NCBI GenBank assembly: GCA_036504595.1
Contig: DASXUX010000022.1
Span: 18,104 to 82,103 of the forward strand
Direction: 5' to 3'
Length of the DNA: 64,000 bases
DNA from: Planctomycetota bacterium
Lineage (GTDB): Bacteria > Planctomycetota > SZUA-567 > H5-PLA8
The translations under genes and the position numbers were made by a program. The notes below the pieces were generated by a model. The model worked only from the letters and a program-made list of their open reading frames with translations, searched no databases and had not been told where the DNA came from. Positions 47,440 through 64,000 of this stretch are shown here, piece by piece (the first letter of the stretch is position 1; each line of letters begins with the position of its first letter).

Positions 47440-48294
47440 TCAGTGCGTCAGGTAGTACATCAGCACGTTGATGCCCATTTTGATCGCTTCGGTGTCGCGT
47501 GTGGAGCCGAAATAAATCGACATCCAGCCGCAGTGCAGGTCGCCGGGTGTGGCGACCGTCATCAACCGTCCGGTGCCTTTTTCGAAAAGACCCCACGCGC
47601 CGTGGTCAACGCCTTGCATGATCGGGCAGCCTTGGGGGAAGTTGAAGTAGCAGCGGTAGAGTTCGTGGTTGTCGGGAATGCGCCGCATCGGGTTGTCGGG
47701 AAACAGCGAGTTGATGATGCGAACGTAATCCATGAAGAAGCGGTCGCCGTCTACGCCGGTATTGCTTCGTTCGCGGTCCTTGAACTCGAAGTTCTCGCCG
47801 ATATCGGATTTTACAACCCGTGCTTTCATGTTGGGATGGCAACAATCGTCGGCATGTACGAAGCCGCCGCGCATCAGGAATTCGCGGAGGTTATCGGCCT
47901 GCCTGGATTCCAGATCGAATTCAGTTTCCGAGGTCATGAAGACGTACGGATAACGGGCCATTTTGTCGAGATCCTCAAGCTCGACCACGACCGGTTCAGG
48001 ATTGGCGTTGATGTTGGTCAGTTCCATCAGCTTGCGGCGCAAAATTGTGTCGCCAGAGGGCCCCACGTTCCAGATATCATGCCTGCGGTCGCGCACGTGA
48101 AACTTCAGGCGCGGAAAGAACAGCTCGCCAGTTTTGACCGCTGCGTTTTCTCCGTCCTCAGCAGCCTTAAGTTTGGAGAACATCCCGCCGAGCGCGCTGG
48201 AAAAAGCCGCGCCGCCGAGCATCGCGGCCGACTTCTTCAAGAAACTGCGCCGTCCGTCGCTCAACGGCCGGTATTGAGGTTGTGATCGCCGCAT
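47440..48294 (-). CDS. DUF4159-like (class-I glutamine amidotransferase-like fold) protein with a Tat signal
   Basis: RRSFLKKSAAMLGGAAF twin-arginine signal. From memory this family often sits next to MoxR/DUF58/BatA loci. Confidence 0.5.
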   Translation of the reverse strand: MRRSQPQYRPLSDGRRSFLKKSAAMLGGAAFSSALGGMFSKLKAAEDGENAAVKTGELFFPRLKFHVRDRRHDIWNVGPSGDTILRRKLMELTNINANPEPVVVELEDLDKMARYPYVFMTSETEFDLESRQADNLREFLMRGGFVHADDCCHPNMKARVVKSDIGENFEFKDRERSNTGVDGDRFFMDYVRIINSLFPDNPMRRIPDNHELYRCYFNFPQGCPIMQGVDHGAWGLFEKGTGRLMTVATPGDLHCGWMSIYFGSTRDTEAIKMGINVLMYYLTH

Positions 48295-48387
48295 TTGGGT
48301 TCCGCCTCGGTGCGTGGCGCTGAGAACAGCGAAAGTAAACCTAGCGAAAATGCAGGCGCTTTGCAAGAGTTAAGTGTTCGAGCAAAT

Positions 48388-48744
48388 TCATCGCACGCGC
48401 TCGATCAGCACATCCTTGGTAACGAAGTTGATCTCCAGCCGATGGTCGCGAAGCAGATGGGTGCCGATCAGAATCTCCTCGCAAGCCACAAACGTCGCCT
48501 CAGCCAGCGTGACTTTGCCGTCGAATGAAAAGGGCAGTTGATATCGATCTTCGTCAACCGTCTGACCGGCCGCCAGGATTGACGTGACAGTACCAATCCA
48601 CCTTGCGCCGAGGGATGTGCGCAAGCGGCGTGGGAGTTCCAGGTCGCCGTTGAATCCCGTGTCAATCAGCGCGTTCCAACTCTGGCCGGCTACGTCCAAA
48701 GTGATAGCAGGAACGCCGAGGGTATTCACCCTGCCAGTGATCAA
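48388..48744 (-). CDS. retropepsin-like (clan AA) aspartic protease domain protein
   Basis: IDTGFNGDL (the D-T/S-G active site) and LIGTHLL motifs. TTG start overlaps the stop of the upstream small gene (TTGA). Confidence 0.6.
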   Translation of the reverse strand: MITGRVNTLGVPAITLDVAGQSWNALIDTGFNGDLELPRRLRTSLGARWIGTVTSILAAGQTVDEDRYQLPFSFDGKVTLAEATFVACEEILIGTHLLRDHRLEINFVTKDVLIERVR

Positions 48745-48992
48745 CGGTGCCCCCCTTTGCGCTCGTACCAGTCGTAGCCAACCCGAACGAAGTAAAGGAG
48801 CGCGCTGATGCCTTCCGCATCAAGCTGTTTCACAATGTCGGATGCCCGTTCTCCGAACCAGACGCGCCCGCTGTCTGGATCGATGCCAGCAGTCTGGTCT
48901 TTCCAGGCGGAGACATCATGGCTCTTTTGGTATTCGGCCCAGGTTGCCTTGGCTTTCTCTGTTTCTTGGGCTGTCCAAGTTGCTGTTGGCAT
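48741..48992 (-). CDS. small hypothetical protein (84 aa) translationally coupled to the retropepsin-like gene
   Basis: SD GGAGG lies 9 nt before the ATG at 48992. A palindrome ATACTAAAAGTAT at 49007-49019 sits just upstream. Confidence 0.5.
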   Translation of the reverse strand: MPTATWTAQETEKAKATWAEYQKSHDVSAWKDQTAGIDPDSGRVWFGERASDIVKQLDAEGISALLYFVRVGYDWYERKGGHR

Positions 48993-62342: not shown

Positions 62343-62350
62343 TTTTGTCA

Positions 62351-62460
62351 CCACAGAGACGCTGAGACGCAGAGAACAGCAGAGCAGATGAACAAGAAGT
62401 CTACCCCAATTCTTCCCTCCCTCTGTGTCCTCTGTGTCCTCTGCGTCCTCTGTGGTGAGC
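62351..62460. promoter_or_regulatory. inverted repeat (CACAGAG ... CTCTGTG) enclosing the RBS and start codon of the BNR gene
   Basis: ccacagagacgctgagacgcagagaacagcagag – ATG – ... cctctgtgtcctctgtgtcctctgcgtcctctgtgg. The 9-mer repeats encode CVLCVLCVLC in the signal peptide. Confidence 0.7.
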
Positions 62461-64000
62461 TCTTCTCGGCGGAGCCCTCGCTCAGTTCGGAGGGGCGCTT
62501 CGTCTGGGAGCCGGAGTTGCGCGTCCGGCGCACCGAAAGGATTTTCGCTGACCCTCATCAGCCGCGGCACGTCTGGGTCGCCACAGCTAAAGGCATTATG
62601 GAGAGTCGCGACGAAGGCGGCTCCTGGGAACTTCTGCCCAGCACGGCTCCCACGGAGGTCGGCCGCATTGCGGACGTTCTGTTTGCGCCGCTGGATGCGC
62701 AACTCATACTTCTGGCGTCGCGCGAACGCGGGATCTTTCGCTCCATAGACGGCGGCAAAACCTGGCAAGTACTTGGGACGCCGGCAAACGGCCTCAAATC
62801 GCTTCAGGTGCTGCGCCTGGCTTGCGATGAAGAGGAGCGCAGGACGCGCGTGCTCTATGCAACGCATGGCGATGCGGCGGCGGGCATTTCGAAATCCATC
62901 GACGGCGGGAAGACGTGGTTCGGTATTGCGGAGCATTTGTGCGCGCAGGAAATTCTGCTGGAAGCCGGCGACATACTCGTGAGCGCTCGCCGCCGCGAGG
63001 AAGACGGCACGTGGGGCATCTACCAGAGTCAGGACAGCGGTGAAACGTTCGGCGAGAGCGCGCGTGACGTCCGCTGCACGGCCGCGGGAGTCAACCGCAT
63101 TAAACACGCCGGCGTATGGTTCGGTGTGCAGAAGGGCAAGCTGCTTCATCGCGTGGCCATCGCGAACCATGAGGTTATCCCGGACTGGCAGCCCGTCGGC
63201 CCTCCCAAAGACGGGCAGTGGGCTTCCATCTTCGGCTCCTTTGGCCGCGACATTAATGATGATGTGCTCTATGCCTACGACCCGGCACAATATGGATTGG
63301 TCGCTTCGCGCGACGAATTTAAAACGTGGTGGACCGAGAACAGCGGACTGTTCGACGGGCCGCTGGTGAAGGAAGGCGCCAGCGTCTGCGCGTCGGCTAA
63401 CGGCAAGGTGCTGTATGCATCGATCAACGGCCAGTTGTACGTCGGGCGGTTGGCAGGCCCGGCTGAAGGGCCGGTGATCGTCTCGTGCGAGATCACGCCG
63501 AGCGTGGTGAAGTGGGTGAAGGACGGCCCGATTCAGTTCACAGCCAAGGTGCTGCCATTCGACAAAGACCCGAAATCAAAAATCAAGCAGGTGTGGGCCA
63601 ACATCGGGCACATTCGCGGGCCCGGCAATTTTGCTCTGGTAGCGCCGGCCTCCGTGCCGGCAGGAAAGGACGCCGGCCAAACCCTCGACGGCGTGTTCTC
63701 GGGGACGTTTGCGATGGGCAAGGACTTTCCCGCCAACTGGCACGACCGGCGGCAGGGAATTCCAGGCGAGATCATCATCCAGGTTTCCGCGCGCGACGAC
63801 AAGAACCGTCAGACTGCTGAGAACCTGCCGCTGTACGTTTTGCCGAAGCCCGAGAGCTTTGTGTATTGGGACGGCGAGAACGTGCGCTGGGGCGGCAAGC
63901 TCGCGGACGGCTGCCGCTCCACCTACAACCAGAGGTTTGATCCGCGAAATGGGATCGTGGATGAAATCGAGACCGACGCGCATGCGGGCAAGCGCTGCCT
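62388..64000 (+). CDS. secreted BNR/Asp-box repeat (sialidase-/sortilin-like beta-propeller) protein, 3'-truncated by the window end
   Basis: Repeated SxDxGxTW boxes (SRDEGGSWE, SIDGGKTWQ, SIDGGKTWF, SQDSGETFG). Contains the family E insertion. Confidence 0.6.
   Translation, partial: MNKKSTPILPSLCVLCVLCVLCGELFSAEPSLSSEGRFVWEPELRVRRTERIFADPHQPRHVWVATAKGIMESRDEGGSWELLPSTAPTEVGRIADVLFAPLDAQLILLASRERGIFRSIDGGKTWQVLGTPANGLKSLQVLRLACDEEERRTRVLYATHGDAAAGISKSIDGGKTWFGIAEHLCAQEILLEAGDILVSARRREEDGTWGIYQSQDSGETFGESARDVRCTAAGVNRIKHAGVWFGVQKGKLLHRVAIANHEVIPDWQPVGPPKDGQWASIFGSFGRDINDDVLYAYDPAQYGLVASRDEFKTWWTENSGLFDGPLVKEGASVCASANGKVLYASINGQLYVGRLAGPAEGPVIVSCEITPSVVKWVKDGPIQFTAKVLPFDKDPKSKIKQVWANIGHIRGPGNFALVAPASVPAGKDAGQTLDGVFSGTFAMGKDFPANWHDRRQGIPGEIIIQVSARDDKNRQTAENLPLYVLPKPESFVYWDGENVRWGGKLADGCRSTYNQRFDPRNGIVDEIETDAHAGKRC
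63639..63678. repeat. family E palindromic element (long form) in frame in the BNR gene (LVAPASVPAGKDAGQ)
   Basis: gtagcgccggcctccgtgccggcaggaaaggacgccggcc. Confidence 0.85.

Follow-up and report, generated by a model that had tools for sequence, protein, structure and literature searches.

The region from 47440 to 64000 of a 64,000-nucleotide stretch of Planctomycetota DNA (hereafter the window; GenBank assembly GCA_036504595.1, contig DASXUX010000022.1) contains nine genes that are conserved together. They encode a DUF4159 protein, two MoxR-type AAA+ ATPases (MoxR1 and MoxR2), a DUF58 protein, a BatA-type membrane protein, a DUF4175-like protein (D4175L), a VWA protein with a GATase1-like domain (GATL), a protein of the caspase/legumain fold (C13L), and a sortilin-like propeller. 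We propose that the region is the version, in the Planctomycetes-Verrucomicrobia-Chlamydiae (PVC) superphylum, of a widespread cluster that combines MoxR, DUF58, BatA, DUF4175-like, GATase1-like VWA, DUF4159, and clan-CD genes, and we assign a probability of about 0.55 to this explanation as a whole, including the mechanism developed below. Among known systems, this cluster has relatives in the Bacteroides Bat operon and in the rhizobial operon RL3499-RL3502 (cmd). Judging from the protein sequences and from analogy with characterized systems, its products most likely form an ATP-driven, periplasmic envelope complex anchored in the inner membrane.

We looked into the conservation of this gene set in about 170 related loci, collected in two scans: one of one-genome-per-species contigs, anchored on an alignment of DUF58 orthologues and giving 80 loci onto which all proteins of the window were mapped, and one of metagenome contigs anchored on C13L (about 70 loci). 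The order MoxR-MoxR-DUF58-BatA-D4175L-GATL-DUF4159-C13L, on one strand, was found in every sufficiently long locus with a DUF58 at least 58% identical to that of the window. These loci come from Planctomycetota, Phycisphaerales/Phycisphaerae, Victivallis/Lentisphaerae, Planctomycetaceae, and unclassified metagenome-assembled genomes (MAGs). In most related loci, DUF4159 separates GATL from C13L; the window and the loci nearer to it (L012, L091, and L180) have DUF4159 shifted to a divergent upstream position, with C13L directly after GATL. Orthologues of D4175L follow BatA in all PVC-type loci. Among the C13L-anchored loci, GATL was immediately upstream of C13L in essentially every one that extended upstream, and MoxR-DUF58-BatA-D4175L and DUF4159 were found near the GATL-C13L pair in these ∼70 metagenome loci. 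In other phyla, the order is (DUF4159)-GATL-C13L-[TPR plus Peptidase_MA_2, ∼880 amino acids (aa)]-DUF4159-MoxR-DUF58-BatA-D4175L.

The propeller gene is the next one after C13L in 7/7 PVC-type loci with enough downstream DNA. Its homologues, with 27 to 70% identity, lie directly after C13L in L095, L097 to L102, and the P0124 contig, and in L095 the propeller start overlaps the C13L stop. The protein has visible Asp-boxes and a Sortilin-Vps10 score of 32.4 bits, just below the cutoff of 33. We assign it to the cluster because its homologues follow C13L in distant PVC-type loci; an assignment to the glycoside hydrolases that surround the operon in the window (GH16, GH2/42-like, and GH123-like) was rejected, since those distant loci lack such hydrolases. 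Dozens of independent loci repeat these families in one order, far more clustering than chance would produce, and an accidental neighborhood is ruled out for the nine core genes. A preliminary description of the window had proposed a co-conserved system distinct from textbook Bat operons, and the joint recurrence of paired MoxR, DUF4159, D4175L, GATL, C13L, and the propeller bears this out. All the genes that it listed are present, at the following positions of the window:

47440 to 48294, minus strand: DUF4159 protein of 284 aa (PF13709, E value of 4e-31) with a twin-arginine translocation (Tat) motif, GRRSFLKK; a core member, divergent upstream of the operon.
48388 to 48729, minus strand: retropepsin-like open reading frame (ORF) of 113 aa (clan AA, DTGF) with profile matches below threshold; outside the system.
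48741 to 48992, minus strand: 83-aa ORF, partner of the retropepsin-like gene, without a profile match; outside the system.
49153 to 50145, plus strand: MoxR1, AAA+ ATPase of 330 aa (AAA_3, E value of 4e-59) with the sensor-1 motif ATQIPFAQEG.
50196 to 50816, plus strand: DUF4272 protein of 206 aa (PF14094, E value of 9e-48, 162.6 bits against a cutoff of 27); outside the system.
50856 to 51872, plus strand: MoxR2, canonical MoxR AAA+ ATPase of 338 aa (AAA_3, E value of 1e-61) with the motif ATQNPIEQEG.
51971 to 52870, plus strand: DUF58 protein, a cytoplasmic VWA-like adaptor (PF01882, E value of 6e-43) with a complete MIDAS (an adhesion site that depends on a metal ion), DxSxS...T...D.
52892 to 54940, plus strand: BatA-type membrane protein of 682 aa (BatA PF07584, E value of 6e-17; TIGR02226, E value of 3.5e-18; VWA_2; CARDB).
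55010 to 58858, plus strand: D4175L, 1,282 aa (PF13779, E value of 9e-10, residues 304 to 518).
58954 to 61224, plus strand: GATL, 756 aa (PF07090, E value of 2e-12; VWA; MG2).
61126 to 61221, plus strand: conserved C-terminal tail of GATL, DLWDAP-x12-EW-SARRRAGLA-COOH.
61191 (61275 in the NCBI call) to 62342, plus strand: C13L, secreted protein of the caspase/legumain fold (clan CD; Peptidase_C13, 24.0 bits against a cutoff of 22.8).
62388 to 64000 and past the end of the window, plus strand: sortilin/BNR-type beta-propeller with a signal peptide, ∼675 aa when whole (Sortilin-Vps10, E value of 6e-8; BNR Asp-boxes).

The plus-strand genes are spaced by 8 to 98 nucleotides or overlap, and a scan for promoters and terminators was uninformative, with signals at chance level. 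Profile or fold tests upheld the families that the preliminary description had named (DUF4159, MoxR, DUF58, BatA_N-VWA, GATase1-like, and C13). The DUF4175 assignment held in part, with a score above the Pfam cutoff (37.6 versus 27.3 bits) for a match confined to residues 304 to 518.

We also noted several variants of the locus. The ∼880-aa protein of the non-PVC loci (e.g., L134, 7861 to 10503) carries TPR repeats around a zincin-like Peptidase_MA_2 domain, holds the slot of the propeller in PVC loci, and is translationally coupled after C13L in L105, L115, L123, L131, L134, L151, L155, L170, and L172. DUF4159 occurs in tandem copies in L022 (18718 to 20394), L026 (7103 to 8608), and L027 (6777 to 8350), and the duplicated copies carry Tat signals in a Lentisphaerae locus and Sec-type signals in KSB1-like loci. 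In loci of "Candidatus Poribacteria" (L029 to L065), DUF58 adjoins a BatA-type gene and, unlike in other groups, no same-strand MoxR lies within 3.5 kb upstream. The genes for MoxR1, BatA, D4175L, and GATL are split into multiple ORFs in L015 and L019, probably through frameshift errors in long-read assembly rather than through pseudogenization.

We then analyzed the MoxR pair. MoxR1 and MoxR2 are 54% identical, and each has its own orthologues, as the first gene of every pair best matches MoxR1 and the second best matches MoxR2. The tandem was present in 13/13 loci with a DUF58 of at least 58% identity (PVC-type) versus 0/72 at 52% or less, and L179 and L180 add two further loci with the pair. 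Both proteins pass the AAA_3 and AAA_lid_2 profiles with Walker A (GxxGxxKT) and Walker B (hhhhDE; DEINR), both keep the DRF arginine and sensor 2, and their nearest solved structure is 2R44. The difference between them lies in the motif ATQNP, whose Asn we take to be sensor 1, presumably the counterpart of the Asn in the MCM motif AAANP, at the end of beta-4 and directly behind the pre-sensor-1 hairpin. This position is occupied by Ile in 10/10 intact MoxR1 orthologues versus Asn in 41/41 MoxR2 and single MoxR proteins, so that a polar sensor-1 residue is found in MoxR2 and not in MoxR1. Only seven alignment columns separate MoxR1 from MoxR2 and the single MoxRs in this manner, and the change from Asn to Ile is the most radical of them. 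The paralogues had been described as clearly different near Walker B; the difference is indeed clear, and its site is sensor 1 (ATQIP versus ATQNP), not Walker B.

MoxR2 is also closer than MoxR1 to the single MoxRs of other phyla (54% versus 49% identity). We conclude that MoxR1 is by homology a divergent member of the MoxR family and, from its sequence, probably not a normal hydrolase: it would bind ATP and hydrolyze it poorly, most likely in mixed rings with MoxR2. Among the 150 nearest MoxR clusters (50% identity) of a library of 1.8 billion proteins, Asn in the canonical motif was found in 121, and the remaining clusters that retain Walker B mostly have Asn in a variant motif, with two cases of Ile and two of other substitutions. 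Sensor-1-degenerate MoxR paralogues may have arisen more than once. The clusters P0375 and P0397 have a sensor 1 other than Asn (MATKTSIEADG and ATQCNTDD), and P0361 (916 aa) is a fusion of two complete MoxR modules, both with ATQNPLEQEG, distinct from the pair of separate MoxR1 and MoxR2. The MoxR literature that we searched names no explicit sensor-1 residue; one study merely labels the motif in a figure legend (PMC9976466).

The sequences of the other core proteins suggest how they are distributed between the two sides of the inner membrane. MoxR1, MoxR2, and DUF58 have no transmembrane (TM) segment or signal peptide, which strongly implies a cytoplasmic location, and the MIDAS residues of DUF58 (D89, S91, S93, T166, and D190) do not vary across 21 orthologues. 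BatA has TM segments at residues 3 to 21 and 56 to 74, forming an N-terminal double-TM domain, and at residues 657 to 675; its ectodomain comprises a VWA domain (DFSAS MIDAS), CARDB/Ig, and a weak GATase1-like region, and its conserved tail, WWY-x13-(G/A)E-xxLxN(R/K)T, has the Glu embedded in the C-terminal TM. GATL is a distant paralogue of BatA (22% identity over 319 aa, E value of 2e-4) with two N-terminal TM segments, a VWA domain (DASKS MIDAS), Ig/MG2, a GATase1_like domain, and a C-terminal anchor, and it weakly matches PDB entry 3RHT, a "(GATase1)-like protein." Both proteins begin with two TM helices joined by a basic loop, continue into a large VWA(MIDAS)-Ig-GATase1-like ectodomain, and end in a TM helix plus a basic tail. 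This layout strongly implies that both are anchored at both ends in the inner membrane, with the MIDAS-bearing VWA/Ig/GATase1-like domains predicted to be periplasmic, and experiments placed the VWA domain of BB0173, a BatA-type protein, in the periplasm (PMC5700661).

D4175L combines three TM segments at the N terminus with periplasmic domains rich in beta structure and a charged periplasmic region of ∼600 aa, rich in K, E, A, and Q, that is probably helical by its composition; a sequence search found no relative among solved structures. DUF4159 contains a ThuA/GATase1-like domain and, in the window, the twin-arginine motif GRRSFLKKSAAMLGGAAF, which fits the pattern S/T-R-R-x-F-L-K with a hydrophobic stretch behind it, and RR motifs are present in all PVC-clade orthologues. 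The predicted signals strongly imply that DUF4159 (through Tat) and C13L and the propeller (through Sec) are periplasmic. Searches of solved structures with the sequences of DUF4159, GATL, D4175L, and DUF4272 returned structural-genomics entries without an assigned function (4I66, 3RHT, and 3SOZ) or nothing.

Over its last 32 residues, GATL is conserved far more strongly than elsewhere. Their motif, DLW(D/N)MP-x12-EW-xx-R(R/K)-xx-GL-x-COOH, is in fixed register in 75/77 distinct homologues (from L012 to L178), which share 24 to 88% identity over the full length. Counted from the C terminus, the conserved positions are W(-27), D/N(-26), P(-24), E/D(-11), W(-10), R(-7), R/K(-6), G(-3), and L/M(-2). 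No NCBIfam model, sorting-domain models included, matches the tail.

C13L, the constant neighbor of GATL, had been described as a legumain-like C13 peptidase with an EF-hand. An alignment-based AlphaFold model (pLDDT of 94.8) used as a query in Foldseek retrieved PIGK/GPI8 as the top match, as well as legumain, MALT1, and metacaspases (E values of 1e-7 to 1e-5, TM scores of 0.35 to 0.44), so that, on the strength of this model, the clan-CD (caspase-hemoglobinase) fold is real. In the window protein, the classic H-G (IGHG) and A-C (SACAS) motifs follow hydrophobic strands. His120 is kept in 79/81 homologues; at the Cys position, residues among the 81 homologues include Ser (64), Cys (6), Ala (5), and Pro (4), and within the clade of the window itself the residue is C, A, S, P, or Q. 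As the Cys varies in this way, a conserved role as a cysteine protease is doubtful. In most lineages, C13L might act as a Ser/His hydrolase; alternatively, it might be a binding module that depends on calcium. Its best-conserved features are an EF-hand-type loop (DxDxDGxxSxxE) and a near-invariant C-terminal EHAxLDDNGD motif. The loop, DADKNGTVDLLE, covers residues 206 to 217 of the 355-aa form and lies between helices 192 to 201 and 215 to 231 in the model; D206 is conserved in 76/81 homologues, D/N208 in 73/81, and E217 in 74/81. The calcium link suggested earlier is supported to the extent that these two calcium-type motifs, the EF-loop and DDNGD, are conserved in the sequences of C13L homologues.

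Two further elements of the region are not components of the system. DUF4272 and the retropepsin-like/83-aa pair are recent, strain-specific insertions. The 206-aa protein had been viewed as an orphan flanked by the MoxRs as part of the system; it is a clear DUF4272 member, and its homologues at 55 to 58% identity lie in three unrelated neighborhoods, none with a MoxR. All 14 other two-MoxR loci lack it between the MoxR genes, which leave no room there for another gene. DUF4272 and the retropepsin pair are missing from every other locus, including those with a DUF58 84% and 92% identical to that of the window. No homologue of the retropepsin-like ORF or of the 83-aa ORF was found among the ∼170 related loci, and the retropepsin-like gene is missing at its position in L091 and L180. 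In the closest relative that we found (L179/L180, DUF58 92% identical), the gap between MoxR1 and MoxR2 is 133 nucleotides, a WD40 gene sits where the window has the retropepsin pair, and a 75-aa ORF, a PIN_3 protein (VapBC-like), and a Zn-ribbon gene are located between DUF58 and BatA (L179, 3915 to 5457). As sister genomes thus carry different small cassettes in different gaps, the gaps of the operon gather strain-specific cassettes. The earlier claim of two embedded protease types is thereby reduced to one conserved caspase-fold protein, C13L, the retropepsin pair being private to this genome.

The occurrence of different small cassettes in different gaps of sister genomes suggests that this pair is a toxin-antitoxin-like mobile module. 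The retropepsin-like ORF contains DTGF, with matches to TIGR03698 (E value of 7.8e-10, 39 bits against a cutoff of 57) and Asp_protease_2 (E value of 0.019) that are below the cutoffs, and the 83-aa ORF has no match in Pfam, NCBIfam, or PADLOC. With the TTG start of a mechanical call (48388 to 48744), the retropepsin-like ORF overlaps the stop of the 83-aa gene by 4 nucleotides; with the start of the contig gene call (48729), the two are 11 nucleotides apart. DUF4272, for its part, is a highly conserved solo gene, with a different neighborhood in each genome examined. Its alignment across Planctomycetota and Verrucomicrobiota has a mean column identity of 63%, many invariant Trp residues, and three invariant Cys residues, and its all-alpha model (pLDDT of 94.3) resembles no solved structure.

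We propose the following mechanism. MoxR2, as the catalytic subunit, and MoxR1, which would bind ATP with hydrolysis impaired by the sensor-1 Ile, would form a mixed AAA+ ring working through the cytoplasmic VWA adaptor DUF58. The template is NorQ/NorD, the best-studied MoxR/VWA pair, in which a single VWA protein is bound by the MoxR hexamer and uses its MIDAS to hold acidic residues in a TM helix of the client (PMC9976466). The MIDAS of DUF58 would grip conserved acidic or C-terminal elements of the membrane partners at the cytoplasmic face. Candidate targets are the loop of BatA_N and, in both BatA and GATL, the C-terminal anchor with its Glu and the basic tail, the sole parts of the co-encoded membrane proteins exposed to the cytoplasm. 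ATP hydrolysis would then assemble or remodel a periplasmic VWA/coiled-coil scaffold to which DUF4159, C13L, and the propeller would attach, and C13L may also trim this scaffold, probably in a calcium-dependent manner. By analogy with rhizobial mutants, the output is most likely the organization and integrity of the cell envelope: RL3499-3502 mutants are cited as having envelope and morphology defects (in PMC5700661), and RL3499 and RL3500 mutants showed impaired growth on complex medium (PMC5118466).

Several points weigh against this explanation. The mixed oligomer, the contact between DUF58 and the tails, and the envelope role were deduced from sequence and analogy, the sensor-1 assignment rests on textbook AAA+ topology, and the DUF4175 match is partial. 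Most of the loci compared are MAGs, some with frameshifts (L015 and L019). Pirellulales-type relatives keep the GATL tail and have no C13L within 10 kb, and not every part is therefore obligatory. Related systems can be dispensable, as deletion of all bat genes from Leptospira biflexa gave no phenotype (PMC3557215).

We weighed the proposal against other readings of the locus. That all genes from 47440 to 64000 form one machine, in which MoxRs act around DUF4272 and aspartic and cysteine proteases mature membrane or secreted substrates under calcium control, would agree with the adjacency and compactness of the genes, with the canonical H-G...A-C dyad and EF-hand loop of the window C13L, and with the strong sequence conservation of DUF4272. 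Synteny largely refutes it, given the unrelated contexts of DUF4272, the absence of DUF4272 and the retropepsin pair from even the 84% and 92% relatives, and the PIN-type cassette at a different gap of the latter; the C13L Cys, moreover, varies inside its own clade. We regard this reading as very improbable. A Bat-type system guarding the periplasm against oxygen or reactive oxygen species, as first proposed for the Bacteroides fragilis Bat operon, would account for the shared MoxR, DUF58, and BatA_N-VWA families, and Bat-like genes of Borrelia respond to oxygen (PMC5700661). Yet no BatD or TPR Bat protein is encoded among the window genes, no redox domain was detected, and the cluster occurs alike in lineages annotated as anaerobic and as aerobic. 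The full bat deletion in L. biflexa was likewise without an oxidative-stress phenotype (PMC3557215), which disfavors a simple role in aerotolerance, and we give this reading little chance. It is somewhat easier to envisage, although still unlikely, that MoxR1 and MoxR2 form separate homo-hexamers, each with clients of its own (the BatA module for one and the GATL/C13L module for the other, for instance), and that Ile only slows MoxR1. Both proteins retain Walker A, Walker B, the arginine finger, and sensor 2, and the cluster does contain two paralogous VWA membrane proteins. Against such a division, non-PVC clusters serve the same VWA pair with one MoxR, there is a single DUF58 adaptor, and the pair is always in tandem with each copy under strong separate conservation.

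Another reading centers on GATL and C13L: the GATL tail would be a C-terminal sorting signal and C13L its dedicated GPI8/sortase-like endopeptidase or transpeptidase, which would cut by the membrane after Asp/Asn and release or re-attach the VWA module, while MoxR/DUF58 would clear or present the anchor. GATL and C13L are adjacent across phyla, the tail is tripartite (LWDxP, a short TM, and EWxxRRxxGL-COOH) with a fixed register in 75/77 homologues, and its residue -26 is Asp or Asn, the P1 residues preferred by C13 enzymes such as legumain. In addition, the top structural match, PIGK, is the subunit of GPI transamidase that removes C-terminal hydrophobic signals, and Ser or Cys occupies the nucleophile position beside the conserved His in 70/81 homologues. 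However, several orthologues, close relatives of the window among them, have Ala, Pro, Gln, or Gly in place of the nucleophile, the Pirellulales-type loci have the tail without C13L, BatA carries a different conserved tail, and the NCBIfam sorting-domain models gave no match. Such a sorting enzyme seems rather unlikely to us, and so, to a slightly greater degree, does a combined version, a trans-envelope machine with an obligate mixed MoxR1/MoxR2 ring in which the GATL tail is gripped by DUF58-MoxR and processed in the periplasm by a GPI8-like C13L. Finally, a defense system was considered and rejected, as PADLOC gave no match except for a weak caspase match of C13L.

Returning to the envelope complex that we favor, we compared the cluster with known systems. 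The association of the MoxR-DUF58-BatA-DUF4175-DUF4159 core is already known. In RL3499-RL3502 of Rhizobium leguminosarum, which belongs to a type of cluster broadly conserved in alphaproteobacteria, a MoxR-proper and a DUF58 go together with a double-TM BatA_N protein tied to DUF4159 and with a large membrane protein of the DUF4175 family. The window locus holds the same five families, all above the cutoffs (DUF4175 partially), and differs by having two MoxRs, one with a degenerate sensor 1, a separate, Tat-exported DUF4159, two long VWA/Ig/GATase1-like membrane paralogues, a clan-CD-fold protein, and a sortilin-like propeller. Bat operons (Bacteroides; BB0170-BB0176; Leptospira batABD) likewise combine MoxR and DUF58 with BatA_N-VWA inner-membrane proteins whose VWA domain is periplasmic. 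They have, however, one MoxR, TPR/SH3 proteins (BatB, C, and E), and BatD, and they are without the DUF4175-like, GATase1-like, DUF4159, C13-like, and propeller genes of the window. In the window genes, no TPR or BatD match was found, the TPR plus Peptidase_MA_2 protein being restricted to the non-PVC variants.

As in the remodeling chaperones NorQ/NorD, CbbQ/CbbO, and RavA/ViaA, a MoxR-class AAA+ ATPase is matched here with a VWA protein that is cytoplasmic and keeps its MIDAS intact. Those systems use a single ATPase type acting on defined enzymes (cNOR, Rubisco, and respiratory complexes), whereas here the ATPase is duplicated and the presumed clients are the co-encoded membrane VWA proteins. 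C13L shares with the C13 enzymes legumain and PIGK the caspase-hemoglobinase fold and, in the window protein, the His-Gly and Ala-Cys motifs after hydrophobic strands; it differs by an identity of only ∼15%, by a Ser nucleophile in 79% of homologues, and by the extra EF-hand-like loop and EHAxLDDNGD module. Asymmetric AAA+ assemblies (BchI/BchD Mg-chelatase, dynein, and midasin) offer a precedent for a catalytic module combined with a hydrolysis-degenerate paralogue and a VWA/MIDAS partner. The window modules are, in contrast, separate MoxRs of equal length with only sensor 1 changed, and their mixed ring is inferred. The rings of dynein and midasin are derived from MoxR-like ancestors (PMC3495828). 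The sensor-1-degenerate tandem MoxR, the GATL-C13L coupling, the propeller, the GATL tail, and the PVC-type cluster were not described in the literature that we searched, in which subscription journals were thinly covered.

In the window, the operon lies amid glycan-degradation genes: a 1,289-aa GH2/GH42-like protein and a secreted GH16 protein are encoded upstream (41179 to 47340), and a GH123-like protein of 961 aa (L003, 15587 to 18472) followed by an HD-domain protein is encoded downstream of the window. The glycoside hydrolase neighbors are not conserved beside the operon in the other genomes compared.

Among conserved operons that await a functional assignment, those of the MoxR/DUF58/BatA type rank with the most widespread, and the evidence from mutants conflicts, pointing to aerotolerance, to envelope integrity, or to no phenotype. 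The locus described here and its relatives separate the true genes of the system from hitchhikers. They also constitute a natural AAA+ design experiment, with a conserved sensor-1-degenerate paralogue beside a canonical copy, and they provide two biochemical handles, the conserved C-terminal tail of GATL and its caspase-fold partner with calcium motifs. An obligate mixed ring, if true, would give prokaryotes a free-standing equivalent of the asymmetric rings of dynein and midasin. If the mixed ring or the processing of the tail holds true, a long-standing functional puzzle would become directly testable, with a bearing on the unusual organization of the envelope in planctomycetes and their relatives.

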